A stretch of 63,995 bases of DNA, counting the filler, from Folioceros fuciformis (lineage: Eukaryota): NCBI GenBank assembly GCA_049999805.1. It is 6 parts of 6 records of this genome, joined end to end, with 100 filler letters (N's around TTAATTAATTAA, not from the genome) between each part and the next. Parts side by side here need not be neighbours in the genome. Positions count along the whole stretch, not along the records: positions 1 to 27,158 come from JBNGIO010005832.1; 5 more parts are not named here. One strand, 5' to 3'. The notes beneath the pieces are model-generated. The model was not told the origin of the DNA, made no database searches, and saw nothing but the letters and a program-made list of their open reading frames with translations. Position 1 is the stretch's first letter; every line of letters begins with the position of its first letter. A program made the position numbers and the translations under genes. Of this stretch, positions 12,187-45,300 are shown one piece after another.

Positions 12187-13566
12187 ATGAAATGTGTGCG
12201 GGGGAGGTGCGTGGAATGCGCCGTTTGCAAAATGCAGGCGCGAGGCGGAGGGTCAAGCTCAGGCTCGTACCTGAGGCCATTTCGGGAGACGCTGCAGGCA
12301 GCAAAGCGGCGATGGGGATGGATGGAGTACCTGGCAGGCCTGGCCACCATTATCCTGGCTGTGGCAGCCGTGTCTCTCGCATCGCACCCCGACAAGCCTC
12401 TGGAGAGCCGGGGCATGCCCGATCCCGGGCAGGAGAATTCGGTCGCGCAGCCCGAGGGCTCACCCATCATGGTGGAGAAGACGGTGGTGAGGGAGCCAGG
12501 CGATGGAGTCTGCCTTGACGGCTCCTCGCCAGCCTACCACCTGCAGCTGGGCACGGGTGCAGGCACCAACAACTGGATCGTCATGCTGGAGGGCGGGGGA
12601 TGGTGCAGGGATGTTCAGGATTGCGTGCTCCGAGCCACAACCCCCCTCGGATCCTCGGCTTACATGGAGGCTTTGCCCTTCGAGGGTATTCTCAGCTCTA
12701 CTTCACCTGCCAACCCTGACTTCCATACCTGAACGCGGGTCAAGGTGCGCTACTGCGATGGCGGCCCCTTCGCCGGCCACGCCACCGACAAGCACCAAGC
12801 TGGCATCTTCTTCCGTGGCAGGGAAATCTGGAGAGCTGTCATGGCAGATCTGCTGCGACTGGGGCTCAAGGATGCGGAGCACGCCCTGCTGGTAGGCTGC
12901 TCAGCTGGGGGCCTTGCTGCCATGCAGCATTGTGATGATTTTGCGGAGCTGCTGCCGAGTGCGAAGCGGGTGCGCTGCGTGAGCGATGCCGGATTCTTCA
13001 TGCGGGTGCCGGATGTGGCGGGCCGGCCTACCATTGCCGATCTCTTCGCTGGGGTTGTGGAGATGCAGGGAGTGGAAGTGAGCCTTCCTTTAGCCTGTAC
13101 GGCTGTTCGACCCACGCTCGACTGTTTCTTCCCTCAAGTTCTGCTTCACTACATCCGCACGCCGCTGTTTGTGCTCAATTCTCCCTACGACGATTGGCAA
13201 GTGCAGAATGTGTTGGTCCCAGGGGGCTCGGATCCTCAAGGCCAGTGGGACAACTGCCGCGAAAATTTGGCGCGCTGTTCGCAAGAGCAGTTGCAGGTGG
13301 TGCATCCTTTCAAAGACGCCACGCTCAAGGAGTTGCAGCCTCTCCGGGAAACGGCTCCGGCATGTTTCTGGACTCTTGCTTCACGCACTGCCAGACGGAG
13401 GGGCCCATTCCGCATGATGCCCATTCCAGACCCTGGAATGGGCCTCACGCGATGCGCCTGGATGGCAGGACCATAGCGGATGCCGTTGGGGATTGGTACT
13501 TCGATCGCAACGCCTGTGCACCTTATTAATTGCGCTTACCCCTGCAATCCCTCCTGCCCGATTTAG
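12187..13566 (+). pseudogene. Intronless pectin acetylesterase (PAE/Notum family) pseudogene
   Basis: Motifs CLDGS.PAYH, LEGGGWC, NPDF..W..V.VRYCDG, GCSAGG, DAGFF, DSCF.HCQ, DWYFDR and C.YPCNP.C are all present. TGA replaces Trp at 12730-12732, with frameshifts near 13350 and 13515. Confidence 0.9.
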
Positions 13567-16223: not shown

Positions 16224-16867
16224 CTATTTCTTGAAACTTGTGGCCAGAGAGGCAACTAAAGTTTCCAGTAGTGCTACTTTCTTCTCTTCAAGGGCTTCTA
16301 GTTTCATGGACATAGAGCTCCATAAGCTGATAGCATCACTTGAACTTTCTTGAGAGGTCTTTCTCTTTTTAACGATGTCGTTATTGCTAGCTCTACTTAG
16401 TGTAGAACTGTCAACACTTGACCTCTTGTGTGAAGAAGCATGCGCCTCACACACAACATGAGCACGATTATGCATATAAAGATCAACAATGTCAAACCAT
16501 GCACACATTTCAAACCTGTCGTTGCCGGATATGGTATTGTAAGCCTTGTTCACTTTGTAGTCCTCATAAATCAATTTCAATTTCTGCTTGCAGGCCTCCG
16601 AATTCTTATCAAAATCATGGCGAATTACAGCTATTGCTGCAGCCACCTTGCTCCAAATATCAAATCCTAGAGGGTAGAAAAATTCTTAAACAAAAACTTG
16701 AATTTGCTCCTACTAACTCTTGTACCTTGTTTTGGAGTTTTGTTAAATTTAGCCTCCATCCCATCTCTTACATGAATGAGGTTTATCACATGATGCTCTT
16801 TCCATGCATCTCCTTTCTTGCCACCAGCCGAAAATTCCTCTATCTTCATGAATTGCTCTTTCTTCAC
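16224..16867 (-). CDS. Harbinger Myb/SANT (trihelix-like) DNA-binding protein, 3' exons; 59-nt intron at 16667-16725; 5' part disrupted by Copia
   Basis: W.EHHV.NLI...IWSKVA...K.SEACKQK.K.I..DYK...C.WFD.VD pattern. A GT-AG intron joins the two ORFs in frame (KQG/FDIWSK). Confidence 0.75.
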
Positions 16868-17025
16868 AACATGCCATCGTCGTTAGGTGGGCACTGGATA
16901 GATTCGCACACAGTCTTCATCTTGGGGGAGGGTTGTTGCAGGTTGAGGTGTTGGATGTACCTGCAAGGACAGCCCTGCTGCCAAACCCCAGATACCAGTT
17001 GGTACCAAGGTGTTGCTAATGATAG

Positions 17026-20000
17026 TGTTAAGACCCCATCTGGTCTATTTAACCACGTCGCTAGGGTTTACCAATATGCTAGGTATAATATACATATATA
17101 GCTGAATTAGCCCTAATATGAATAGACACAAATGAATAGCCACTTAACCCTTTTTAGTGTGGACCAGGTTCTTGTGCCTTTCGACTAAAGGACAGCATTG
17201 CTCTTCAGCTTGACCATGTTCTGTATGTACCTACCATGGCTAAGCATCTCCTGTCTGTCAGCCAGCTTATGAAGCTTCGACAGTTTGATCTCTGTTTCTC
17301 AGCCTTTGGTTGTACTCTTACATACAAAGGCGCTGCCCAAGGTGCTCCACTTGCTCGAGGGATTTTGGTAGATGATCTCTACAAGCTGAACATCTGCTGT
17401 CAACCAGCACACAGTGCTTTTGTGGCTGCCAACACACAGTCTGCATTAGCCCAACTTTGGCATGCTCGCTTGGGACATGCAAACAAGAACAAACTTCTAA
17501 AAATGTCCAGCATGGAATGTTATAGGGAACCGTTGCCCAAGTGTTTTAAGGAACTTCCCCTTTGCGATTCTTGTATCCTGGCCAAACAAAAGGAGTTACC
17601 TTTTCCATCTGTTGTTGCCTACAGGACTACTCATGTTCTCGATCTTGTGCACACAGATATATCTGGCAAGATACAAGTTCCTTCTTTGGGCGGCTCCAAA
17701 TACTATCTTACCTTAACTGACGACTATAGCAGGTATTGCTGGACATACCCTATTCAAAAGAAATCAGATACGTTTTCAGTGTTTCAAGAATGGCTTCCCA
17801 TGTTTCAACGACAGACAGGTCGACTTCTTCGCTGCTTACGGTCTGATAATGGTTCGGAGTTTATAAATTCAACCTTCTATGAATATCTTGCTGCCCATGG
17901 CATTTTGCGCCAGCTTGCTGTTCCCTACACACAACAGCAGAACGATGTCGCTGAACGACGGAATCAAACTTTCTTAGGCATGACTCGCAGTATGCTTCAA
18001 TGGTCTGGCTTGCACAAAGCCTATTGGGCAGAGGCAATTGTCATTGCCACTTACATTCTTAATCATCTTCTTACCAGTTCTGTGTCAGGGCGTACCCCTT
18101 TTGAAGTAATATGGCAGCGTCGACCTAGTATACTACATCTTCGAGTATTCGGTTCCCCTGCATATGCTTATGTCCCTGCATAGCAACGTAAGAAGTTAGA
18201 CGCTCGTGCCCGGCCCCTTATCTTTGTCGGTTATGGTGAAGAAAGCAAGGCATACAAGTTATATGACCCCCCCACCCGGTCATGTGTCTTTGCTCGTAGT
18301 GTCACATTTAAGGAACTTACTCAACCAGCTGTTTCTCACTTTGCTGATGTTACTGCACATCCTGTGCTTCCTGACGATGACTTTGATGCTGCTGTTTCGG
18401 AATATCCCCATGATGTGTATCTGGTTCCATCTTCAGGGGGTGTGGCTGCTCGTGGTTCAGGGGGTGAGTTGCCATCATCTGTTATTCTGCAGCCTGAATC
18501 TCCACTACAGGCGCCTGTTCAGTATGACTCGACATCAGCTCAACCTGCAGATTCAGCTGTGTTGGAAGATGATCATAGTTTGACAGAACCTCTAGCAGCA
18601 CACTCTGAGGAATTAGACATTGACATGATGGAGTCGTTTCCTGTAACTAATGACCTGGACAATACATTGGACGCTGCTGCCTCTTCCGAGGATGAACAGG
18701 AAACTCCTGCTCACATTGAATCTGAGATACATGTTCAGGATACATCTGCTCTTGCTGAACCTAGGTACCCTAGCAGGACAAGACATCCCAGAGATCAGTG
18801 GCATGAGCGACCATATGAAGCAATAGATTTCAGGAATACCAGATCTTCTAGACTGGCAATGAAATTGCCGGTTGTTTTCTCTGCTTCCATCGAGCATCCT
18901 GCAGAACCAAGATCATATAAGGAGGCAATCACAGGTCGTGACAAAGATAAGTGGATTCCCTCCATACAGGATGAATTCAGTTCTCTTGTCAAAAATGGAA
19001 CTTGGGAGCTCTGTCCTTTGCATGCTGGACGCAAGGCAATTAGTTGCAAATGGGTTTTTAAGCATAAGCTTAATGCCCAAGGCCAGACTTATTGCTCGAG
19101 GGTTCTCCCAAGTTGCTGGAGTGGACTACACTGATACTTTCAGTCCTGTGGTAAAATCTCAGTCCATTCGAATGATTCTGGCTTTAGCAGCTGCCCGCGA
19201 CTGGGACTTAGAGCAGATGGATGTATCCACCGCTTTCCTTTATGGAGAATTGGAGGAGGACATATACATGGAACAGCTAGAGGGATTTGTAGATCCTGAG
19301 CATCCAACATGGATGTGCAACCTTAACAAAACCATTTATGGACTCAAGCAGAGTGCCAGGGAATGGTATAAGACGATCGATGCTTACCTCAAATCGATAG
19401 GTTTTGCCCAAAGCTCAGCAGATTCTAATGTATATATCTACATTACGAATGGACACATCGTTATACTAGCACTATACGTTGCTGATGCCATTTTAGCATC
19501 AGACAGTCGTGAGCTTATGGATTGGATTAAACAAATGCTTCATAAACAGTATGAGATGAAAGACATTGGTGCCCTCACCTTTGTACTTGGAGTACAGCTG
19601 CACAGGGATCGCATCAACAAGACTCTTCTTCTGCACCAGACAAAATATGTAAATGAAACTCTGAAGCGTTTTCATCTTGACCAGGCTAAACCCGTCAGCA
19701 CACCAGGAGTTGTTGGTGCTAGGCTCACCTCTGAGCAATCTCCGCAAACTGATGATGAGCTTCAGGAAATGGCAGATGTACCCTACCGCCATGCGGTTGC
19801 CTGAATTATATTGCCTGCTGGACTCGTCCAGATATCCAGCATGCCGTAAGTTGCGTTTCACAGTTCCTCGAGAAACCTGGCAACGACCACTGGGGTGCTG
19901 TTAAACGCATTCTGCGCTACTTGAAAGGAACCTCCACCTATGGACTTCGTTATCGTGGGGCATCTCTTGATTCAGACTATGTTCTTCAAGGATTTGCTGA

Positions 20001-21105
20001 TGCAGACCGGGCCTCTGATCCTGAAACTCGCCGTAGCTTATAAGCTTATTGCTTCACACTATCAGGAGCTGTGGTAACTTGGAGTACGAAGAAGCAGATG
20101 TCCGTGGCTCTCTCCTCCACCAAGGCCGAATACAAGGCTTTGACGGATTCAGCCAACAAGGCAGAGTGGGCACGCAGTTTCCTTGCCGATCTACAGTTCC
20201 CACAGGCCAAGCCAACCAAAGTATTTTGTGACAATCAGTCTACCATCGCGTTGGTTGGAAACCCTCGTTTCCATGCCCGCACGAAACATATCGAAATTCA
20301 GCACCACTTTGTGCGACATTCAGTTGAGAGGAAGATTGTGAAGATTGAATATATACCTACCGATCTTAATCTAGCTGATCTGCTCACCAAGGCCCTTCCT
20401 AAGGCTAAGCACAATTTCTTTCTTAAAGAAATGGGAATTGCAGACCACCTTGGCCTTCTTCCACCAACTGGCTAGCCTTAGTCTACAGTTCTGAGCAACA
20501 GGTACCCGCGGATGAAGCTCTCTCACCATATCCAATCGCGCATCTTGTTGCTACTCTGGTAATGGGATTCTCGCTGCTGCTGCTAGTCTCGCTGCCACCT
20601 CAGCCCTTTCTACATTGTGCCTTCGTTGCAGTTGCCGATCCGATTGCAGGACTTACAGTCGCTGACACAGCGAGCTCGATATTCCATCCTGCCAGAGTGA
20701 CGAGTTTCTTTGCTTCATGTCTTCCCCAGTTTGTATGCGCTTATCCTTGTGTTTCTGCTTCTTCACATGTTCGATGAGGAGGAATATGGCAATGGTTAGC
20801 GCACAGCTCGTCAGCGTAAAGTGGACTGCTGCACTTATCATTTCTGACGTTGTCGTAGTTCATAGTGTCGTGGTTAAGGGGGTGTATTAAGACCCCATCT
20901 GGTCTATTTAACCACGTCGCTAGGATTTACCAATATGCTAGGTATAATATACATATATAGCTGAATTAGCCCTAATATGAATAGACACAAATGAATAGCC
21001 ACTTAACCCTTTTTAGTGTTTAAGAACAAAAAACCTTTTATTATCAATCATCATTTTTTGCTGAATATGTGATTTTTTCAAGCTCCGCTCTACCAAAATC
21101 TAACA
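17026..21105 (+). mobile_element. Ty1/Copia element 3 with TSD GATAG; 5' LTR truncated (17026-~17160) and PBS/gag deleted; 3' LTR 20885-21105
   Basis: The LTR sequence is present at both ends, with GATAG at 17021-17025 and 21106-21110 and PPT TAAGGGGGTG. GAG-pre-integrase, INT, RT (YVAD) and RNase H carry stops and frameshifts. Confidence 0.9.
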
Positions 21106-21818
21106 GATAGACGCCCTAAGGATGGGCATTGTGAAAGGTGACAAAGAGAAACTGGTCGTAGGTGAAAAGTTATTGACTTGTGAGCCTTGTGACAGGCTAC
21201 TCACTTGCCACTCATCTGGACTGCTGAAACCACCACTTATTTAGGACAGCATTGTTTCACAAGGATGATGAATAAAGGGATCCATGTCTTTCTCGGTTAA
21301 GCAAAACCAAGTGCACAACAGAGCTTTGTGGAAGACGGGCGGGAAACTTGTTTAACCAAAATGAAGTGCATGAAGTTGGTTTGAGGAAGAAGTATGTTTC
21401 GCGAGCTGCTGAAGTAATAAAATAGATTGCATGTGAATGGGTATTGAAAAGGATTGTGCCTAGTAAATCATTGACCGTAATAACATTGTTAAATATGCCA
21501 TGGGTTGGCATACAATTGCATTCAAGTTTTTTCATGTTGGGTGTGTCAGGGTGTGTGAGTAGCTACCGGCCAAAGGGGTTGGTAGCTACTGACAAGTTTC
21601 AGAAGTGAGCGAAGCTGCCATGTCACGATGGCATGACTGCGCAGTGTACAAGGGCTTTACATGCACCACCCAATCCTGCCTCCCCATTTCCTAACACCTA
21701 GTGTAAACTCGGCCTAATAGCTAGACAACGACAAGCGCAAGCAGGATAGGACGAAGTGAGGTTGGATAGTCGAAGGAGCAACAACAAGTGGGGACAAAGT
21801 GAGGTTAGACAGCTGAAA

Positions 21819-21948
21819 GAGAATGACAAATGATCGAAGAGCCACTTGGAGAGTAAAGCCAACGTGGCAAATGTGTTGAAGGAGGAGAATGACAAATGAT
21901 CAAAGAGCCAATTGGAGAGTAAAGCCAACGTGGCAAATGTGTTGAAGG
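21819..21948. repeat. Tandem duplication of a ~65-bp unit
   Basis: GAGAATGACAAATGATC.AAGAGCCA.TTGGAGAGTAAAGCCAACGTGGCAAATGTGTTGAAGG occurs twice. Confidence 0.85.
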
Positions 21949-22779
21949 CTACGAAGGAGGCCGCATCGTTGTCAAGATCATTCAAAACCACCAACGAGTG
22001 GTTGGTTGGTGCATGATGTCCCGAAGCAGAGAATACGTTTATTCACTTAACTTTAGGTCCATTAGACGAGGTTCAAAAAATAGACCATTTGGCGGACAAC
22101 AAAAGCCGCATCCCATGCTATTGCTACTAAAAGGGGTAACATATACATTCTTTTCACGTGCACTTTCTCCAAAGAATGTACCTTGTTCTTGTTCTACGTC
22201 AAACCGCTTACTTTCCTCATGCAACCGCGGTTGCAGATTTTCGGACACCTTGACAGGCTTGACCGCCGCTTGAGGCCATTCAATCCCTTCAAATCATCCT
22301 TTGATTCCACCCATATTGTTATTTATTTATTTATTTATTTTAGAAAATCAAGATGGAAAAACCGTTCTCCCATATTGCTTCGCGTAGGGCAGCCACAATC
22401 ATTCACATTCTTCAAGGAAACGTCTGTACAAGACAGGAGTCCTCACATCATCGTTGACGTTATACAAGTACCACACCTTTTTGACCGCCATCCTGTTCTG
22501 CCATGCTCGCCAGCACTGTACCTCATCATCGCAATAAACCACCCGTCAGCATGGAAGAAGATCATAGCAGACCACTGCGTTTCCAGCCTGCAGACTACTA
22601 TACCGGCTCGAGCATGAATATGAATAATTGTTTGCTTAGGCCATGCTACACGCCGATGAGCAGCAGAAACCTAGAGCACCCTGTCACTACCAGCGCCAGT
22701 GCTCCCCCCCTCCCCATTTTTTTTGTTGTCTTCTTCGGACCCGTTGTGCACTCAGCAGCAGGCTGGTGTGTGCACAGGG

Positions 22780-25700
22780 ATGGTCATATTTGGATCTCCG
22801 GCTCACCTCAGTGCAGGTAGTAAACCCCTGAACATCAAAGCCTCCAGGTGCAGCAGAGTACGAAGTCGGAATCCAGCACTTCCACTTCCCACAAAGTATG
22901 TGGCTGGGGACCGCGTTTCCAACGATGCTCGTCGCCAGGAGCAGGAGCAATTGTGGCTGCATCTTTTTCTGGATCCTACCATGTGGTGGGATAGCAGAGG
23001 GGATAAGAAGAGCTCACATTGGCCTGATTTCCGGCGGAAGGGGTCAGGTGAGGTCCTGTGGTTAAACAACATGTTCAAGCCAGCTTGGGTGGATGACCAG
23101 CTCCTTTTCTTGGATACCCACTTGGCTCATGGAGCCTCTTCCAGATCCAGCTCTTCGGAGAAGCCTCAAGCTGACAACAGGCGTGCCACATCGGAAATGG
23201 GCTCCAGGTGCAGCACCAGCGTAAGGACCCCAGCAATTCTACCTCCCACCAAAGATTTGAGTGGGGACGGGTTCTCAAGTGATGCTCGTTGCCAGGTTCA
23301 GCAGGACTTGTGGCAACCATTTTCTCCTGACTCTACCATCCAGTGCCACTATAAACGAGATAAGAAGAGCTCCCGTGCGACCGAATGCCGGCGCAAGGGG
23401 TCGAGCGAGGTCCTGTGGTTAAACAATCTGCATGCCCCAGCTTGGGTTGATGAACAGCTCGTCTCCTCCTTGGATACACGGACGGCTGATGCTTCCGTAT
23501 GCTCTCCTTCCAAGCCGACCTCCCCGGGTAAGCCTCAGCCTGGGAGGCGTGCAGGATGGGAGGTTGGCGTCGTAACGCCCGGCACCGTTACCATGTTATG
23601 TCATCAGGGGAAGCTTTCTGAGGCCATTGTGGCCCTGGAATCTTTGGCGCACATGGACTCCGCTATTTCTCACTCTTTGCTTCGCACGGTGCTCAAACTT
23701 TGTACATCTAGGAAAAATTTGGTTGTGGGTCGACGCCTTCATCATCTCTGTGTCAAGCTGGGGTACGACTCCAATACATCTTTGGGGAGCCACATCTTGC
23801 GCATGTATGCATCTGAAGGTAGGCTGAAGGAGGCGAAGGAAGTGCTCACCAGGGTGGGCAAACCAGATGCCCTTATGTGGTCTTCCATCATTTTCGCATA
23901 TGCTAAGCATGGGAAACCTAACGAAGCCTTGCAACTGTACCAGGAGATGCGTAGGTCAGGAGCCAAGGCAAATGCCCACGTCTTTGCAGCTGCTCTTCAA
24001 GCTTGTGCTTTGGCTGCGGACTTGGAATCGGGCAGAAAAGTGCACTGTGATATACTGCACAGCTGCATTCCCCCTGACATATTCGTTGGCACCTGCCTGT
24101 TGAACATGTATGCAAAATTTGGTGAAATGGAAGATGCACGTCAGGTTTTTGACAGCATCGCTACAAAGGATGTGGTGACGTGGAATGCCCTCATATCTGG
24201 CTATGCAAAATGTGGTCAGCTGGAAGACGCACGTCAGGTTTTTGATAGCGTCAAGACAAAGAACGTTGTGACATGGAATGCCCTGATATCTGGGTATGTG
24301 GAACACGGGCAGGGACATGAGGCCCTTCTTGTGTATGGAGAAATGGAGCGGGAGGGGCTCCTTTTGGCTGACCACGTTACGTTTGCTTGCCTTCTGAAGG
24401 CCTGTGCAAGCACTGGTGCGTTACAGAATGGCAGGCACCTGCACTCCCTGATTGTTGAAAGAGGGCTGCTGGATAACCTGGTGTTGGGTAACTGCGTGGT
24501 GGACATGTATGCAAAATGTGGTGAATTGGAAGATGCGCGCCAGGTTTTTGACAGCTTGGTCACGAAGGATGTGGTGACATGGAATGCCCTCATAGCTGGG
24601 TATGCACATCAAGGCCTCGGCCGAGAGGCGCTTCTTGTGTTTGAGCGAATGGAGGAGGAGGGCCTCGTTTTGGCTGACCATGTTACATTTGCCTGCCTTC
24701 TAAAGGCCTGTTCAAGGACTGGAGACTTACAGAATGGCAGCCATTTGCACTCACAGATTGCTGAAAGACGACTGCTGGATAATGTAGTGTTGGGCACCTG
24801 CCTAGTTGACATGTATGCAAAATGTGGTCAAATGGAAGATGCACGCCGTGTCTTTGACAGCTTAGCTACCAAAAACGTGGTGACATGGACGGCACTGTGT
24901 GCTGGGTATGCACAGCAAGGGCTCGGCCAAGAGGCCCTTGTGGTGTATGGACAAATGGAGGAGGAGGGCCTCACCCTGGCTGACCATGTAACTTTCGCTT
25001 GCCTTCTGAAGGCCTGTGGAAGCAATGGTGCGTTACAGAAGGGCAAGCAGCTGCACTCGCAGATTGTAGAAAGAGGACTGCTGGATAACGTGGTGTTGGG
25101 CACCTGCCTGGTGGACATGTACGCAAAATGTGGTGAACTAGAAGATGCACGCCACATTTTTGACAGCATGAAAACAAAGAATGTGGTGACGTGGAATGCC
25201 CTGATATCTGGGTATGGTAGTTGTGATGATGGTCATACAGCAGTAGCTTGTTTCGAGGAGATGTTATTTGCGGGTATCCAGCCTGATGGTGGTACTTTCA
25301 CTTGCCTTCTATCAGCATGCAGTCATGAGGGACTTGTGCAGGAGGGTCTCAAACACTTTGTTTCCATGGCTGAACTGCATGGCGTCAAACCCACTATTGA
25401 GCATTACACCTGCATGGTCGATCTTCTTGGGCGTGCAGGCCATTTAGGTGAGGCTGAGAGCATGCTTTTGTCATGTGAGGGCCAAAATAATGTTGTGGTC
25501 TTGACGTCCTTGTTGAATGCGTGCAAAAATCATGGGGACATAGAGAGGGCGATGTGGTGTTTTGAAGCCATTGTCAGGTTGGACCCCCACGAGGCGCCTG
25601 CGTATGTGCTCATGGCCAATGCTTACGCAGATGCAGGCAGGTGGACCGATGTACACAGAATCGAATCACAGAGACACATAGCAGGAGCTCACAAGAAACC

Positions 25701-26097
25701 AGCGGTGGCGACCGTTGAGGTGAATAAGCAGGTACATAGGTTCCTGGTGGGAGAAAGGAGGGAGGATATTGCCCTTACGATAGAGAGCTCGAATGCACGG
25801 CTGAAGCAGGAAGGGGGCCATGAACCTCACACAAAATTGGTGTTGAAGCCACTTTCTGAGACGGAGAAGGAGGATGCGCTTTGTGGGCATGCGGAGAAGC
25901 TGGCCCTGGCGTTTGGTCTGTTGAACACTCCGAGTGGGACCCCTCTTGTGGTGACGAAGAATCTACGGATGTGCAGTGACTGCCATAGTTCCACGGAGAT
26001 AATGTCACGGCTTGAACAGCGAGACATTGTTGTGAGGGATGGGTACCGTGTGCATCGATTCGCAAAGGGTTCATGCAGTTGCAAGGGTCGACCATGA
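22780..26097 (+). CDS. PLS-class PPR protein with E1/E2 and DYW:KP (GRP-type) deaminase-like domain, N-terminal transit-like peptide and two PDF-like motifs; candidate U-to-C organellar RNA-editing factor
   Basis: Uninterrupted ORF (open from 22699; first ATG 22780) with P-L-S triplets, an SS motif and P2-L2-S2, then KKPAVATVEV, CGHAEKLALAFG, KNLRMCSDCH and HRF..GSCSCKGRP-stop. Confidence 0.95.
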   Translation: MVIFGSPAHLSAGSKPLNIKASRCSRVRSRNPALPLPTKYVAGDRVSNDARRQEQEQLWLHLFLDPTMWWDSRGDKKSSHWPDFRRKGSGEVLWLNNMFKPAWVDDQLLFLDTHLAHGASSRSSSSEKPQADNRRATSEMGSRCSTSVRTPAILPPTKDLSGDGFSSDARCQVQQDLWQPFSPDSTIQCHYKRDKKSSRATECRRKGSSEVLWLNNLHAPAWVDEQLVSSLDTRTADASVCSPSKPTSPGKPQPGRRAGWEVGVVTPGTVTMLCHQGKLSEAIVALESLAHMDSAISHSLLRTVLKLCTSRKNLVVGRRLHHLCVKLGYDSNTSLGSHILRMYASEGRLKEAKEVLTRVGKPDALMWSSIIFAYAKHGKPNEALQLYQEMRRSGAKANAHVFAAALQACALAADLESGRKVHCDILHSCIPPDIFVGTCLLNMYAKFGEMEDARQVFDSIATKDVVTWNALISGYAKCGQLEDARQVFDSVKTKNVVTWNALISGYVEHGQGHEALLVYGEMEREGLLLADHVTFACLLKACASTGALQNGRHLHSLIVERGLLDNLVLGNCVVDMYAKCGELEDARQVFDSLVTKDVVTWNALIAGYAHQGLGREALLVFERMEEEGLVLADHVTFACLLKACSRTGDLQNGSHLHSQIAERRLLDNVVLGTCLVDMYAKCGQMEDARRVFDSLATKNVVTWTALCAGYAQQGLGQEALVVYGQMEEEGLTLADHVTFACLLKACGSNGALQKGKQLHSQIVERGLLDNVVLGTCLVDMYAKCGELEDARHIFDSMKTKNVVTWNALISGYGSCDDGHTAVACFEEMLFAGIQPDGGTFTCLLSACSHEGLVQEGLKHFVSMAELHGVKPTIEHYTCMVDLLGRAGHLGEAESMLLSCEGQNNVVVLTSLLNACKNHGDIERAMWCFEAIVRLDPHEAPAYVLMANAYADAGRWTDVHRIESQRHIAGAHKKPAVATVEVNKQVHRFLVGERREDIALTIESSNARLKQEGGHEPHTKLVLKPLSETEKEDALCGHAEKLALAFGLLNTPSGTPLVVTKNLRMCSDCHSSTEIMSRLEQRDIVVRDGYRVHRFAKGSCSCKGRP

Positions 26098-26641: not shown

Positions 26642-26755
26642 CTTACTTAAGGTTTGGCCAGAAATCCACCTATAACAACGTCTGAATTAAATCAGGTCTT
26701 ACTTAAGGTTTGGCCAGAAATCCTCCTATAACAACGTCTGAATTAAATCAGGTCT
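26642..26755. repeat. Tandem duplication of a ~56-bp unit
   Basis: CTTACTTAAGGTTTGGCCAGAAATC...AATTAAATCAGGT occurs twice. Confidence 0.85.
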
Positions 26756-27158
26756 GTCCACACAAATTGGTTTTCATTCTAAATCCAAATGAATTTGGTT
26801 TTCACTCTAAATCCAAATGGTAAATGGCCATGTTCGCAATCATCCGCTTTTTTTTCTAGTCTGGTGCACACCATGCACTCTTTACGGTGCAATCACATCG
26901 GGAATGATATGATGAGACATAAATGTTTTAGATCTTCGACCATGCATGATTCTAAATGTCCATTGATACTATTTGTTCTCAAAAAACCCTGTTTTTTGCA
27001 TGTATTTGATTCATTTCAAATAGTGGGTCTTCAGTTCTGGGTTACCCTAGAGTTCGCCAATCTCGCCTATTCTTTTCCTATTCTTCACTTCTGATCTCAT
27101 CACTCAACTTCAAACCATGGGTGGTGGCACTGGCTAGATTGATGACACGGGGGCATAT

Positions 27159-27258
27159 NNNNNNNNNNNNNNNNNNNNNNNNNNNNNNNNNNNNNNNNNN
27201 NNTTAATTAATTAANNNNNNNNNNNNNNNNNNNNNNNNNNNNNNNNNNNNNNNNNNNN
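27159..27258. other. Assembly gap spacer; identical spacers at 40841-40940, 50642-50741, 53673-53772 and 60897-60996
   Basis: 44 N + TTAATTAATTAA (stops in six frames) + 44 N. Confidence 0.98.
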
Positions 27259-27300: not shown

Positions 27301-30300
27301 TGTGAGTTAGAGTTAGAGTTAATTTAATCCTAGTTAGGGTCAACGGTCACACCCTTTCCAAAGGGGCATTTTCTTGACTCTTAAGATGTGTCTATTTAAC
27401 AATTATTACAATTAATAATAATAATATCTTTGTGTTCTTCACAATCACATGGTATCAGAGCATGGTTTTTATAAAACAAAAATGTCTCTTTTCATAAGAG
27501 AATTTTCTCTCAAAATATACATTAATTTCTGAACACAAGATCTCTTAATGGATACATATCATTTTGAGAATCTTTTAAATAAATTATTTAAATCAAATCC
27601 TTCAAAAAGAAATAAGAATTTTTCTAATTTCTATTCTAGTAAAAAGCATGAAATCATTTCAATTCCAAAGTAGAACAAGAAACAACATAGTTTAAATTAT
27701 GTTCAAGACAAAGATACCAAAGTTTATCTTCAATCTTTAGAAAGAAAGATAGATGCTATATATTCTAGAATTAATATTTTTTATAGAACATATGGATTTA
27801 TTTAATTATCACATTAGAAATCTAATATCTGATGTTAATCTGGTAATTGAGTTTAACAACAAAGAGACTCAATCTCAATCTTCTCAAACAGAAGATCTCT
27901 AGAAGTTTCTTTATTAAGAACTTGTCTTGATTAGAACATAGTGTTCTTCTTTAAAATTTTCTTCCAAGATATATATATATATATATATATATCTTCAAAA
28001 ATATTTCTTTATAGACTATTTTAGTTTAAATAATCAACATGGCATCTTCATCTACTTCTCAAATTCGTGCTTAGAATATTGAGAAGCTCTCAGATCATAA
28101 CTGGCATACATGGTCTTATAAAATTCAAATGTTACTTAAGAAGTTAGGGCTTTGGCTTGTAGTGGATGGCACACATGCTAAACCTGCAACTGGAGATCCT
28201 GCTGAAGCTGCTTGGCTAATTTTAGATAATCATGCCCAAACAGAGATTGTTCTCCATTTAGGAGACCGTCACATTGCTAAAGTTAAGCGGCTAACTACGT
28301 CCAAGGACATTTGGGACAAGTTAACAGGTTGTTTTCAGGAGGTTAGTTTAACAACTCAACTCCTACAACAAGATAAACTAGCTGCTTTAAAGCTAAAAGA
28401 AGGAGAATCTGTAACGGATTTTCTCTCAACTTGGGAACAAGCTCTTGATGAGGCTATCTCATCCGGCGTGATTGTGGATGACAAGACACAAGTGATGAGG
28501 TTGCTTAGTTCTCTGCCTCCATCCTGGAGACCTTTTGTGTCTACAATATTCAGTTTAGACACAATGGCTCATCCTCTCACTCTTACATCTCTGTTGGCAA
28601 AAATCCGGCATGCAGCTATTTTGAGAGGCGTTCATCTTTCAGATACCAGTAACACAGGTACCTCAGCTCTCTATGCGGGTCCTAAAAAACCCAGAAATAA
28701 GGGCAGAGTTCCTTTCAAAACTGGTACTCCTTTTCAACCTGGACCTAAATCCAGACCACCTCCAAATAATCCAGCTCATAAGGATCTAATTTGCCACTAC
28801 TGTAAGAAGAAGGGCCACATAGCCCCAGAGTGTCGCAAGCGGAAACATGACAGAGTTAATGGCATTACGGCCTTCTCTAATCATGCGCTTAATTCTTCAG
28901 CCACTGCTTCTACAACTTCTACAGGGGTACCTGCTTACCTGTTTGCTGCTCACTCTCCTATTTTGCTACCAGAACCTCTTTCCAATTGGTGGCTTCTTGA
29001 CAGTGGTTGCACTAAGCACATGACTCCTCGGAGAGACTGGTTTTTCACATATGCTCCTTTATCGCAGCCGAAACCTGTTCATCTTGGTGATAACTCCACT
29101 CTTCTGGGTATTGCCATAGGCACTGTACAAATTCAGATACAGGGCATTACTGCCTTTGTGAAAGATGTTTTACATGTCCCTGGTCTTTCTCAAAATCTTC
29201 TATCTGCCCATCAAGCTACAATGAAGGTTGGCAATTTTATTACTTTTTCCCATCGAGGCTGTCACGTCAAACTGAATGCAGGTAACGATCAGAGCTTACA
29301 GCTTATCTGTCCTCCTGTGGGATGTCTCTATCCCATAGCTCGAGGCTTAGTTCCTTCCCCTGACAATAACCTGGCTGTGGTTTCTGCCACATCCAGCCCT
29401 TCCTCTTTAAGTCTCATCACCGCAAACAAGCTCAGTGATCAGACTACGTTGTGGCATTTAAGGCTATCTCATCTTCATATCCAGGGCTTACATCGAATGC
29501 AGAAGCAACAGATGGTTGTTGGCTTACCCCCACTATCTGACTTGCCTTTGTGTCCCGGTTGCCTTAAGGGTAAACAACATCTTCAACCCTATCCTAGGTC
29601 CGCTTCTCATACTACTCAATTACTTGAGCTTGTCCATGCTGACTTGTGCGGTCCTATGCAGACACCTTCTATTGTAGGCAAACTTTACATGTTTGTCCTC
29701 CTAGATGATTTTAGCCACTATACCCTTCTTTACTTTCTCACTCATAAGTCAGAGGCATTTCCTAGCTTTCGAATCTTTCAGGCTTTAGCTGAGAATCAAA
29801 CTGGTAACAAGATCAAGATTTTTCGGTCTTATAATGCTAAGGAATTAACTTCCCATGCCTTTGAAGCTCACCTGCTTGCTTGTGGCATTCAACATCAAAA
29901 GATAGTGCCTTATGCCCATCAACAACTTGGCAAGGCTGAGCGTCGTAACAGGTCTCTTCTTGATGCTATGTGGAGCTCTTTGGCTACAGCCCACCTTCCC
30001 CATTCTTTTTGGGCCGAAGCTGCTGCTACAGTTTGTTACGTGCAAAATCAGTGCAACACTTCCACTGTTCCTGACAAGACTCCATACGAAGTCTGGACAG
30101 GACGCAAGCCGAATATTAGTCATCTTCGTGTTTTTGGCTGTGATGCGTATGCTCATGTTCCACCAGAACTTCGGAAGAAATTGGATTCGCGATCCACCAA
30201 ACTCACCTTTATTGGTTATGGTGAATCTGATGGTGTCAAAGGCTATCGTTTGATGGCCAGACGCACCCGGCGTATCACTCTTGCTCGGAATGTCCTATTT

Positions 30301-32651
30301 GATGAGCTTTCACCATTGTCTCCCTCTTCTCCGAGCTTGCCTGAAGTTCTCCAGCCCGACCCTGCTTCCATGGCTACCTGCTTTGAAGATGGTGCTATTC
30401 CGGTTGTTCGTCCAACATGTCCTCCAGCCCCGCCTCCTTCCCCTCCGCCTGGTGGTGTATATGCTCCTGCAACTCCGGTTCGCTCCCTGCCTCATCCAGT
30501 GGAAGCCACTCCTGTGGATGATTTTGGTCTTGGGGACCCTTCCTCGCCTCAGGGGGTGCAGGATTTGGACGGTGCGGTTTTGCCTCTGGCCCCTGCTCTT
30601 GATACCCGCCTACCGGATTCTAGTGATACAGTTTCCCCGCCTGTTTTTTCCCCCGGTGTGTTATCTTCTCCCAACCCTGGCAGACCTATGCCGCTATCGG
30701 GGGGAGACGGTGCAGAAGCACACAGGGATTTAGCTGCACAAGCTCCTGCCGAATTGTTAATCCGTGCACCTGCCAACTCACCTGGTCCACGTATAAGACG
30801 TTCCTCAAGAACAACTAAAGGAATACTAGGTACGCGTTATGATGACCTTCAGTTTTCCCGTGGCTTAATAGCAAGCCCCGTCTCTATTATCAGTGATCCG
30901 CGTGCCGTTCGGGAAGCACTTAAGGGTGTTGAAGGCCCTGAGTGGCAAGCCGCTATGGATCGAGAGTTCGATTCACTTATTTCTAATGCTACTTGGACTC
31001 TCGTGGATCCTCCTCCTGGCCGAAGTATCGTGTCCAGCAAATGGGTCTTAAAAAAGAAATACAATGCCGATGGCAGTCTTTCAAAGTACAAGGCCAGACT
31101 TGTGGCGCGGGGGTTTACACAAAAGGACGGCTTAGACTATCAAAAAGAAAGCACATACAGTCCAGTCGTGAAACTTACCTCGCTTAGGGTCATGCTTGCT
31201 TTATTTGCCATCCACAAGCTACATGTCCATCAAATGGATGTACAAACGGCCTTCCTGAATGGCGTTCTTCGAGAAGAAATCTATCTTCAACAACCTGAGG
31301 GCTACATTAAACCTGGTGAAGCCCATAAAGTGTGTAAACTCCATAAGACATTATACGGATTAAAACAATCTCCTCGTGGCTGGTATGAGAGGTTACAAAT
31401 CTTTCTTCTAAGTAAGGGCTTCAACAAATCACATGCAGATTCCAGTGTCTTCATAAGAAGACAAGGTAACGCTCACCTTATAATGGGTCTATATGTTGAT
31501 GACCTTGTACTTTGTTCCAATGATCTCGGTTTTCTCAACTTGATCAAAGGTGAGCTCAGTAAGGAGTTTCTAATGACTGACAACGGTAACATCAAGTATC
31601 TACTTGGTGTCCAGGTTATCATGACCTCCGATAGCATAAGTCTTTATCAAGAGAGGTACATTCTTGACATGCTAGAAAAGTACCAGATGCAGAATTGTAA
31701 ACCCGTTGACACCCCTATGCAAACTGGTGAAAGGCTACGTTCTTCTATGTGCCCCAATACTCCTACAAAGATAGCAGAGATGAAGGATATACCCTATAAA
31801 GGGATTGTAGGTAGTATACAGCACTTGGTACAGAATACCAGATTTGATGTTGCTTGTGCCTGTAACCAGACTGCTCAGTTTCAAGCTTCCCCTGGAAAGC
31901 CCCATTGGGTGGCTGCCAAGCGTATTCTCCGATATCTTCAAAAGACTAAGACTTTTGGCATCACTTATTCTGGAGGTACGGGTGCACAAGACAAGCTTCT
32001 AGGATGGACAGACTCCGATTGGGCTGGTGATCCAGACTCCAGAAAGTCTACATCCGGTTATGTTTTCACTCTTGCTGGTGGTGCTGTCAGTTGGAAGTCC
32101 AAGAAGCAAGCCTGTGTTGCTCAAAGTTCCGTAGAGTCTGAGTATATTGCTGTAGCTGCTGCCGCAAAGGAAGCCATTTGGCTTGTTCAACTTCTGGAAG
32201 ATCTCGGTTATCCTCATGATGGGCCTGTAGAAGTTAGGTGTGATAATCAGGCTGCCATCTCTCTTTCTCGAGATCAGCGCTTCCATGATCGTTCAAAGCA
32301 CATTGAATTGCGCTATCATTACCTTCGTGAGAAGGTGGAATCATGTCAACTTCTTCTTACTTATCTCCCGACATCGGAGCAAGCTGCAGATATTCTCACG
32401 AAGCCCGTGTCTCGCCTTATACTTGATCGTTGCTGCCAGATGCTAGGCTTGTCCTCACTCTCATGAGAGAGTGATTATTTCCTACCTAGGATTAAGGGGG
32501 TGTGTGAGTTAGAGTTAGAGTTAATTTAATCCTAGTTAGGGTCGACGGTCACACCCTTTCGAAAGGGGCATTTTCTTGACTCTTAAGATGTGTCTATTTA
32601 ACAATTATTACAATTAATAATAATAATATCTTTGTGTTCTTCACAATCACA
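27301..32651 (+). mobile_element. Young full-length Ty1/Copia element 4; 149-bp LTRs (27301-27449, 32503-32651)
   Basis: The LTRs differ at 2 positions by eye. PBS TGGTATCAGAGC at 27450-27461, PPT TAAGGGGGTG, TSD GGCAT/GGCAC. Confidence 0.97.
28039..32466 (+). CDS. Copia gag-pol polyprotein (gag, CCHC knuckle, PR, INT, RT, RNase H); early in-frame TAG at 28072, open from 28129
   Basis: CHYCKKKGHIAPEC, WLLDSGCT, LWHLRLSH, HADLCGP, YKARLVARG, YVDD, DSDWAGD, ADILTK. Confidence 0.95.
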
Positions 32652-42397: not shown

Positions 42398-45300
42398 GTG
42401 TGGGGGAAAATATTACACCCGGGGTTGCAGCGAGATCCACACAAACCCTCTATGTTGTTATAGCACTGGGATTCGATCCCAAGGGAATGATTTGTGTCAA
42501 ATAACACAAGTTTCTTCTAAAAGTCAGTTACTACCTAGGACGAACTTTAACTACCCCAGCTCCACTACCTGCTGGTTCAACTACCCCTACCTCCGTTGTG
42601 ACTCAGCTACCGCGGCTCTACACTACCTCTCAAACTCACTCGGCTACCGGGGGGGTCCCTTCAACCATCATCTTCTTCTGTGCATCGGCAGGTGCTTCTA
42701 CTACCTTGGCTCTCGACTACCTCGGTCGTTACTCAACAACCGCGGTAGTGGTCTCCACGATGGTAGTCGAGTTTGCACTACCGCCATCGTGGTTCCACTA
42801 CCTATGTCGTGGTTCCACTACCGCTATCGTGGTTCCACTACCGCCGTCGTGGTTCCACTACCGTGGTGGGTCCTGATAAGGATCATACGCTAAAGGCGCG
42901 CCATTGTATTAGCATAAAGAAAAGGTGAATACAACGCCGCGGTCTCGTGACCTTGATGCGGTGACGGTTAGGGTTTCCTAACTGTCTAGCCCTAAGCCTG
43001 TCTCTCTGGGTTAGTAGACATAACCTACCCTAACACTCCCACTCAGGTGAGAGGGCTAGTCCTATATTCATTTATATATATATTGTTTATTGTTTACTAT
43101 CTAATAATGAAACACTTCGAATCAACTAACGATCGAAATGGCATGGCAGCATATTTAAAAGAAACTTAGGAAAAACCTAAGCCTAACGCCCGCTCTCTTG
43201 GGCTAGCAGTTTTGCGGCTCATTCTTCGATTGCGCTCCAGATGGTCGTGCTTCCGTCCTCACCTGGCTGTGCTCGTGCTCGTTCGAGCTGCCGATCGGGC
43301 ACCCTACTCCACTTGATGTGTTCTCCTGCAGCGTGCAGTCCAAGGCCGGCAGCATGCTGGTAGGCCTTGATGCGGCCAAGTCCCTTACTCATGATATCAG
43401 CCGTCATTTCCTCCGTCGGACAGTAGACAATCTCAGCAATTCCAGTTGCTACTACTTCCCTGATGTAGTGGTGCTGGATTTCTATATGTTTCGTCCTCGC
43501 ATGATACCTGGGATGGATTTATATATGTTTCGTCCTCGGATGATACCTAGGATTCATGCTGAGGGCAGTCGCGCTTTGATTGTCACCGAAGAGGCTGACC
43601 GGCAATCTTTGTTCTACTCCTAGCTCCTACAAGGCTCCGACTGTCCATGTCACCTCTTTGCAGGCCTCCGTCAGGCTCTTGTACTCGGCCTTTGTCGAGG
43701 AGAGCGCGATTGTGTTATGCCTTCTACTGCTCCAGCCCACAACACCTCCAACAAGCAGGGTAATGTAACTTGAGATGCTTTTCCTGCTATCAGGGTCGCT
43801 GGCCTAGTCTGCGTTACTGTATGCTACTAACTGCAATGCATCCTTGGATTTCGAGCTGTACAGAATGCCCCAGTCATAGGTTGCTGCTATGTATCTGTAC
43901 AGTCTGTCCATGAGGTTGTTGTGGTGTAGGTTTGGATTGGACACAAACCTCGAGGTCAGTCCAGAGATGAATGCAAGGTCTGGACGAGACCCTATCATCA
44001 GATGCATAATACTTCCATTTCTAGAAGGGTACTGCTGCACTTTCTCCACATCCTCTGCAGGTATGTCTCCTACCTGTGCATAGTACTTGGTATTTTGATC
44101 AACAGGGGTGGAGATAGGTTTGTAGCTACTCATCCCGTATCTAACTAGAATCTCTTGTGCATACTTCATTTGGTGCAGGAAGACTGTGCCATCTTTGCGA
44201 TTTCGAAGCAGCTGCATGTCAAGGCAGAATGCCAGTGGTCCTCCAGCAGTTATTTTGAATGCTCTGCTCAGCTGCTGTCTGAGGCCCTCAATCATACAAA
44301 CGGAGTTGCTCATGATTATAATGTCGTCGACATATATGGTAAGTGCCAGAAAATCTGTTCTTTCTCGCTTTATATACACATTGCTGTCAGCGTTTAATGT
44401 TTGCATAGGCAATTGACTTCAAGTAGCTGTCTATGCGCGAGTACCAGGCCCTTGGGCTCTGCTTGAGCCCGTACAAAGATTTGTGCAGCTTGCAGACTGG
44501 ATTTCGCAGGCTGCCAAGGATGTCCACTCTTGAAGGCTCAGTCATATAAATCTCCTCTTGGAGATTGCCATACAAGAAGGCAGTGGTAACATCTAATTGC
44601 TCCAGTTCGTAGTCTCCCACTGCTGCTAGTGCTACGAACAATCTTAGAGTTGTTAGCTTCACTACGGGGCTGAATGTGTCCTCATAGTTGACTCCGGGGA
44701 TTTGTGAGTACCCCTTTGCCACCACCCTTGCTTTTTATTTGTCTATACTACCATCTGCCCTTAATTTGAGCTTGAATACCCACTTGGACCCAACAGCCTT
44801 GCGATGTGCAGGTAGGCTTGTTAGGGACCAGGTTTTATTCTCATACAATGAGGCTAGCTTAGAGTCGATGGCCTTTTGCCATAACTTTGCATCCATGCAT
44901 GCTAATGCTTCCTCATAGGTCTGTGGCTCAAAAGCCTTCAAATATGCTGCTAGGCAATACGTAAGATGTGACTTCGGGTGTCTGAAGTCATTAGGTTTCC
45001 AATAGTCTGGAGGCTTCCGAACCCTTGATACAGACCTTGGCTCCAAGTAAGCGTGCTTCTGCTTTCTTCTTTGCTGGGCAGTTTGTTGCTGACTTTCTAC
45101 TTCCTCAGCTGCGTGCATCACGTCCATGTCGAAGGACACATGGCTGATCGGAGACTCATGCAATGCCCGATTCCGTACTGCTCTCCTTGGAGTCTTTGCA
45201 GGTGTCCGAAGGATGGGTCTCAGGTTAGCTGCTGCTGGTTGCTGTGGGATTGCTTGTGCTTGCATAGGTATAGGTGTAGGCACCTGCTGCTGCTGACCTT

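Follow-up and report, generated by a model that had tools for sequence, protein, structure and literature searches.

The stretch of DNA analysed here, referred to as the window, comprises 63,995 nucleotides of Folioceros fuciformis (GenBank assembly GCA_049999805.1; six parts joined end to end, with filler between them). The gene considered lies at 22780..26097 on the plus strand, and its best explanation as a whole, PDF module and helper role included, is that it probably encodes an organelle-targeted pentatricopeptide repeat (PPR) RNA-editing factor of the PLS class with a DYW domain of the KP type (DYW:KP, GRP variant), a candidate U-to-C editor that would carry its own helper domain ahead of the PPR array. 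That a real PDF domain, the module known from organellar single-stranded DNA binding (OSB) proteins, is fused to a PPR protein here is very likely, judged by comparison of sequences. A single uninterrupted open reading frame (ORF) of 1105 aa plus stop spans the PDF units, PPR array, E motifs and DYW:KP domain; its first ATG is at 22780, and the stop-to-stop frame opens at 22675. The initial annotation had placed two PDF-like motifs in one frame with the PPR array, and the peptides it quoted were recovered in this ORF, its motif coordinates being right within ~10-20 nt. The features of the gene are as follows:

22780..26097, plus strand: ORF with presequence, two PDF units, PLS PPR array, E motifs and DYW:KP domain
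22780..22932, plus strand: putative organellar targeting presequence, from amino-acid composition only
22838..23201, plus strand: tandem unit 1, ~364 nt (repeat search, families D1, D2, D5 and D6)
22933..23103, plus strand: PDF copy 1, intact, residues 52-108 (61.5 bits, non-PPR PDF profile)
23202..23568, plus strand: tandem unit 2, ~367 nt (repeat search)
23299..23460, plus strand: PDF copy 2, degenerate, residues 174-227 (23.1 bits, non-PPR PDF profile)
23575..25530, plus strand: PLS-class PPR array, residues ~266-917 (Pfam PPR and PPR_2; boundaries by our own reading)
24202..25216, plus strand: internal tandem array, 306-nt unit, 3.3 copies, 79% matches (repeat search)
25531..25719, plus strand: E motif, residues 918-980 (Pfam PF20431, 1.2e-14)
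25816..26094, plus strand: DYW deaminase-fold domain, KP type, residues 1013-1105 (Pfam PF14432, 1.2e-32, match residues 1013-1103)

The first 50 residues contain 5 R, 3 K, 7 S, 6 A, 2 D and no E, and this basic, Ser/Ala-rich N-terminus probably represents an organellar presequence. Residues 1-273 match no Pfam family even at an expect value (E) of ≤10, and neither an SSB domain nor an OB fold was found by Pfam in the 1105-aa protein; because it has no OB fold, the protein is not, as far as its domains indicate, an OSB protein, and has only the PDF module in common with that group. The PDF motif itself was reportedly first described by Zaegel in 2006. It has been reported that the motif is about 50 aa long, occurs in plant OSB proteins and is named after a conserved Pro-Asp-Phe, and that in OSB proteins one to several copies follow an OB-like fold and are responsible for binding single-stranded DNA (ssDNA), as stated in the accessible parts of PMC6963530, PMC4166229 and PMC6451138.

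Homology of the N-terminal motif to this PDF, as claimed in the initial annotation, is well borne out. With unit 1 (86 aa) as query, a phmmer search across 1.84 billion representative proteins gave 449 matches at E ≤ 1e-3, of which 102 reached E ≤ 1e-10 and 12 reached E ≤ 1e-30; the matches include P0055 (E 5.4e-16), whose source name is organellar single-stranded DNA binding protein 3 (OSB3). Domain counts rest on the best 150 of the 449 matches and are lower bounds; among these, Pfam SSB was present at E ≤ 0.01 in 50 of the 135 non-PPR matches scanned, and apart from SSB no Pfam family was common to more than 4 of the 135. A profile was built from 319 PDF segments of 134 non-PPR proteins, and with this profile copy 1 scored 61.5 bits and copy 2 scored 23.1 bits. 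Other PPR-DYW proteins served as the negative control, and 48 of the 52 scored ≤4.4 bits. Pfam contains no model of the PDF motif: none covering it was found among the 135 scanned proteins that bear it. An exact-word protein search, a method that needs shared exact words, returned P0003 alone for residues 40-240 of P0001 and, of three candidates, P0168 itself for residues 55-120 of P0168. The best clusters of the protein atlas, which were phage gp49-like (0.83), were disregarded as being under the 0.9 lead level. Several unusual carriers of the motif were also seen (P0069, P0004 and P0013): a Coptis chinensis protein with three PDF copies ahead of a kinesin motor, a Kingdonia uniflora protein with 13 PDF stretches and a protein of the chlorophyte Astrephomene with four. 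Of the three longest non-PPR matches, which were scanned separately, one is a kinesin and the other two match SSB weakly; some of these unusual partners may be gene-model fusions.

The two PDF units are related by a tandem duplication of ~360 nt, which agrees with the initial annotation: in the repeat search, 22868-23110 and 23225-23467 matched over 243 nt with 71% identity at a spacing of 357 nt, and short flanking matches (22842/23202 and 23179/23545) stretch the units to ~22838-23201 and ~23202-23568. Once translated, the two units share 52.9% identity over 85 aa (tblastn E 1.5e-22), and no further copy of the motif was found in the 64-kb window, the next tblastn match having an E of 0.21. 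Synonymous divergence (Ks) between copy 1 and copy 2 is 0.77 and the ratio of non-synonymous to synonymous divergence (Ka/Ks) is 0.47 (Nei-Gojobori, 86 codons); on these estimates the duplication is old and the constraint moderate. The second copy had been described as decayed, and this was confirmed by position. At the positions conserved in ≥85% of 367 segments, copy 1 retains 13 of 13 and copy 2 retains 6 of 13, the lowest of all segments compared; in copy 2, the P, the W-D-R of WWD..R and the P-D-F are lost, and LWL and P.WV are retained. Similarly, the score of copy 1 exceeds 31% of 407 other domains and that of copy 2 lies under 99.8% of them. If the PDF motif is defined by Pro-Asp-Phe together with the W, WWD.R, LWL and P.W positions, copy 1 fits and copy 2 alone fails, its PDF being replaced. 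By these comparisons, copy 1 can be regarded as a good PDF motif, and copy 2 as a decayed one.

The structural models follow the same order. AlphaFold2, with a 50-row alignment, gave copy 1 a mean predicted local distance difference test (pLDDT) of 94.7 and a predicted template modelling score (pTM) of 0.80, the model running from helix 4-20 through a beta hairpin (strands 25-27 and 40-42) to helix 60-74; copy 1 is thus confidently modelled as a small alpha-beta-alpha domain. With identical alignment rows, copy 2 reached a pLDDT of 74.3 and a pTM of 0.47, and this weaker model fits the decay of copy 2. Foldseek found no match for the copy 1 model in the PDB at E ≤ 0.001, the best Z in a wide VIA-align comparison was 4.8, within the noise range, and the PDF profile had no match among PDB sequences at E ≤ 1. 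The lack of a solved relative does not show that the predicted fold is new. The initial annotation had named a match by hidden Markov model or by structure as the check on its PDF assignment; the profile match was obtained, and a structural neighbour in the PDB was not.

The identity of the remaining protein as an editing factor rests on both Pfam matches and residue signatures. Pfam PPR (PF01535) matches at 3.1e-95 over 14 stretches and PPR_2 at 3e-92, and together with the E motif, the DYW domain, an HxE and CxxCH ligands the features of a PLS editing factor are all present. It has been reported that DYW:KP domains differ from DYW:PG domains by a KP box, by HAE in place of HSE and by an altered last triplet, GRP being one of two hornwort variants of that triplet (Ichinose et al. 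2022, PMC9478123, in the part accessible). In the window protein the KP box KKPAVATVEV is at residues 967-976, just upstream of the DYW domain, HAE (HAEKLA) replaces HSE, the zinc-ligand motif CSDCH is present and the C-terminus reads CSCKGRP, so that the KP box, HAE and terminal GRP of the DYW:KP GRP variant are found together, as the initial annotation had stated of this C-terminus. In addition, the identity of the DYW part is 52-73% to HAE/KPA-type proteins vs. 37-49% to HSE/PG/DYW-type proteins. The active-site Lys88 of the designer protein KP6 is essential for U-to-C editing according to the available text of PMC11845758; as a possible counterpart, a lysine is present within KNLRMCSDCH of the window protein. 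The 1105-aa frame is unbroken and no catalytic residue is lost.

The fusion also occurs in other proteins. A PDF N-terminal to a PPR array was found in at least 12 proteins among the best 150 of the 449 matches, from Adiantum capillus-veneris (2), Ceratopteris richardii (2), Pteridium aquilinum (1 transcript ORF), Diphasiastrum complanatum (2), Selaginella moellendorffii (1), Sphagnum compactum (1) and other assemblies (3), and the possibility raised with the initial annotation, that the fusion might be one non-conserved instance, therefore fails. The sole complete DYW end among these 12, that of Sphagnum, is a canonical DYW:PG with HSE and DYW; the other complete proteins terminate within the E motifs or shortly beyond them, and the short ones are cut off within the PPR array. 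In the reverse direction, the DYW:KP part of the window protein as query gave 52 proteins, 28 with HAE, 23 with HSE and 1 with neither. A strong PDF was present in at least three of the 28 HAE/KP-type relatives, namely P0168 and P0172, which end in GGRP, and P0179, which ends in SDRH; P0175 holds a PDF remnant (4.4 bits), and no PDF was found in the other 24. Because several of the assembly-derived ORFs begin within the PPR array, 3 in 28 is a minimum figure. Four GRP-ending relatives were found, and two of them also carry a PDF. P0168 shares 55% identity with the window protein over 936 aa, and its one PDF, which is intact, lies where the window protein has copy 2; intact PDFs are in matching position in P0168 and in the fern and lycophyte proteins. 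It can be seen from these alignments that the PDF-PPR architecture recurs in ferns, lycophytes, a moss and KP-type assembly proteins, and that the PDF module is, on the same grounds, neither specific to nor required by DYW:KP. The initial annotation had raised the question whether PDF goes with DYW:KP rather than DYW:PG, and a special link of this kind is not upheld.

The PPR-linked PDFs also differ from the others in sequence. Of 20 PPR-linked segments, 12 carry the signature KP.WV[DE], vs. 3 of 347 non-PPR segments (Fisher p 5e-15, a value inflated by sequence relatedness). In a FastTree phylogeny of 154 segments and 56 columns, a branch with local support (SH-like) of 97 unites 17 segments, of which 14 are PPR-linked, both window copies included, and 3 are short fragments, one of these running on into a PPR-like start. 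Similarly, IQ-TREE with 77 segments gave an SH-aLRT of 98 for a similar set of 15, 13 of them PPR-linked, and in the approximately unbiased (AU) test a single clade of all 20 PPR-linked segments plus the 3 fragments was not rejected (p-AU 0.71). At least one well-marked PPR-linked PDF subfamily exists, as read from these 56 columns, and a single ancient PDF-PPR fusion is not rejected by the same columns.

Contigs of sequencing runs, coded X1 to X4, were compared with the gene. The kind of every run is a guess, X1 being guessed as RNA; among the runs recorded as RNA, none was found to contain the stretch. X1 contigs equal the window without difference at 22581-22992, 23061-23621 and 23596-24194, with further pieces to 26667, and ungapped X1 pieces (run kind guessed) thus contain the region around the start codon, copy 2 and the beginning of the PPR array; the uncovered X1 stretches 21000-22427 and 26712-27100 carry no evidential weight. 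Place 23049 in copy 1 is covered, in runs from other coded organisms, by 17-22 contigs that are at least 90% alike, and copy 2 by far fewer. In one X4 contig, 23015 is linked to 23391 through 18 other letters, so that 357 nt net, equal to one unit, are missing. These runs hint that related genomes hold a sizeable gene family with the PDF region, mostly as a single unit. Across window 22836-23447, the four runs X1-X4 (at least three coded organisms) had many contigs 90-95% alike on copy 1 and few on copy 2.

Compared with known systems, the window protein combines features of two groups. Like OSB proteins, it has a PDF of ~50-58 aa with conserved W, P, WWD.R, K, PDF, LWL and P.W, and both are probably targeted to organelles; OSB proteins contain an SSB-like OB fold, after which come one to three or more C-terminal PDFs, whereas the window protein lacks the OB fold and has its PDFs N-terminal to the PPR array, and these fall in the PPR-linked subfamily. 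The DYW:KP GRP-variant PPR proteins, which are hornwort U-to-C candidates and the basis of the designer KP2, share with it the PLS array, E motifs, KP box, HAE, CxDCH and GRP, as described in the accessible part of PMC9478123; no N-terminal domain beyond the PPR array is described in that part, whereas the window protein has a PDF and a decayed duplicate. The seed-free PDF-PPR proteins KAI5076972.1 (Adiantum), KAH7415342.1 (Ceratopteris), XP_024517303.1 (Selaginella), KAJ7570437.1 (Diphasiastrum) and CAM6033764.1 (Sphagnum), as well as the Pteridium transcript, resemble it in their short N-terminus, one to three PDFs and PLS PPR array, but end in E motifs or canonical DYW:PG, not DYW:KP; their database names are hypothetical protein or plain PPR protein. 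A possible functional analogy can also be drawn with the seed-plant editosome helpers MORF/RIP and ORRM (with an RRM domain), in which a non-specific helper stands beside a specific PPR tract; those helpers have unrelated folds and act mostly in trans.

The PDF motif, OSB proteins and DYW:KP editors are already known, and the literature searched yielded no account of the PDF-PPR combination. That hallmark domains of editing factors can be fused to one another is on record in PMC13386178, a 2026 kingdom-wide survey of such fusions, as far as its accessible text goes, and a term search of that survey found the words OSB, PDF and single-stranded DNA absent. The PDF-PPR architecture was not found in the literature searched, key subscription papers and supplements lying outside the search; in the same literature, none of the three relevant publications that mention the PDF motif dealt with PPR proteins, PDF motif and pentatricopeptide occurred together in one review only, which mentions PPR in connection with RNA polymerases, and organellar single-stranded DNA occurred together with DYW in no publication.

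As for the function of the module, a cis-acting RNA-helper mechanism with the transcript as favoured ligand is proposed tentatively, and we hold it somewhat less probable than its opposite. The module, duplicated in tandem as part of a ~360-nt unit, sits between the putative presequence and the PPR array, its distal copy kept intact and its PPR-proximal copy depleted of half the conserved residues; it is the ~55-residue domain that organellar OSB proteins place after the OB fold. According to the proposed mechanism, the intact PDF, predicted to be rich in exposed conserved aromatic and basic residues, would bind single-stranded nucleic acid in cis without sequence specificity. The PDF would thereby add transcript affinity beside the sequence-specific PPR tract and take the helper role held by separate accessory proteins in seed plants.

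Several points weigh against this mechanism or against a role for the module at large. OSB1 and OSB2 prefer ssDNA to RNA, according to the accessible part of PMC4166229, and because of this preference a DNA-directed role would be favoured over an RNA helper; the RNA-helper role of PDF-PPR proteins is in turn a prediction from sequence. Because there is no solved neighbour for the fold of copy 1, the modelled structure gives no functional hint. With copy 2 decayed and a Ka/Ks of 0.47 between the copies, constraint is, on these values, relaxed on at least one copy. It is also possible that the PDF region is cleaved off together with the presequence, and the module is clearly dispensable for the editor class, only the at least 3 of 28 KP-type relatives noted above having a strong PDF.

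Among the other explanations, the one that survives best, although unlikely, is that the PDF binds organellar ssDNA, as in transcription bubbles or replication intermediates, and so tethers the editor to ssDNA and concentrates it at nucleoids for co-transcriptional editing. The sole biochemical property reported for PDF, in the accessible parts of PMC4166229 and PMC6963530, is indeed the binding of ssDNA in preference to dsDNA and RNA, and copy 1 retains all 13 conserved positions; however, the ligand preference of PPR-linked PDFs may have shifted, because they form their own subfamily with a distinct signature, and the module is absent from most KP-type relatives. It is less probable still that the PDF is a protein-protein module which oligomerises or docks to PDF-bearing or nucleoid proteins, with no nucleic-acid binding here: the diversity of its settings, from SSB-type proteins and PPR proteins to a kinesin and arrays of up to 13 stretches, is typical of a generic adaptor and AtOSB2 is reported as a tetramer (PMC6963530, in the part available), but the same literature, as far as accessible, assigns ssDNA binding to the PDF motif itself. 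A functionless relic, that is, a decaying N-terminal extension removed with the presequence or tolerated after sloppy internal duplication in a transposon-rich region, would suit copy 2 as the most degenerate PDF of 367, the other internal tandem duplications of the gene, the Copia elements flanking it in the window and the PDF remnant of P0175 (4.4 bits), but is very improbable given that copy 1 stands at 13 of 13 conserved positions despite a Ks of 0.77 between the copies, that intact PDFs occupy the same position in P0168 and in fern and lycophyte proteins, and that the 1105-aa frame and catalytic residues are intact.

Extended beyond this gene, the candidate editor with its built-in PDF helper would belong to a class of organellar editing factors, ancient and conserved among seed-free land plants, in which an OSB-derived PDF links the editor to single-stranded nucleic acid at the nucleoid or nascent transcript and serves as a built-in substitute for the trans helpers of seed plants, KP members being brought to their substrate co-transcriptionally; this generalisation is speculative and we regard it as doubtful. 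DYW:KP U-to-C editors are under development as programmable RNA base editors, and how natural KP enzymes find and hold their substrates is poorly known. The PDF is a small, confidently folding, apparently portable domain, predicted to bind single-stranded nucleic acid, on natural PLS editors of several seed-free lineages; it may offer a handle on whether editing is coupled to nucleoids or transcription and on the stability of RNA binding in lineages thought to be without seed-plant helper proteins, as well as a possible route to better designer editors. Its presence on PPR proteins widens the known range of the module beyond OSB proteins. Because Pfam has no model for it, Pfam-based annotation will not flag the PDF.

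The 306-nt unit of the internal tandem array corresponds to 102 aa, by our reading the length of one P-L-S triplet. The tandem duplications of the PPR array (24109-25216) seem to be recent, and the gene seems, from its repeats, to be growing by unit duplication at both ends; such unit duplication in a PPR gene bears on the evolution of target specificity. Also inside the PPR array, at 24109-24298, is a 93-nt unit (31 aa) in 2.0 copies with 83% matches.

Elsewhere in the window, a Ty1/copia-type long terminal repeat (LTR) retrotransposon lies at 28075-32466 on the plus strand, ~2 kb downstream of the PPR gene in window coordinates, with one open 1463-aa polyprotein (gag, integrase, RVT_2). Two more copia-like copies, at 16406-19804 (plus) and 44735-46953 (minus), are each broken into several frames. 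The window contains 440 N, and a gap with short pieces beside it near 27203-27214 breaks the contiguity of the assembly a little downstream of the PPR gene. Finally, an open frame at 12733-13473 on the plus strand matches Pfam pectinacetylesterase at 5.9e-72 over profile positions 100-310 of 355 and is probably one exon of a nuclear gene.

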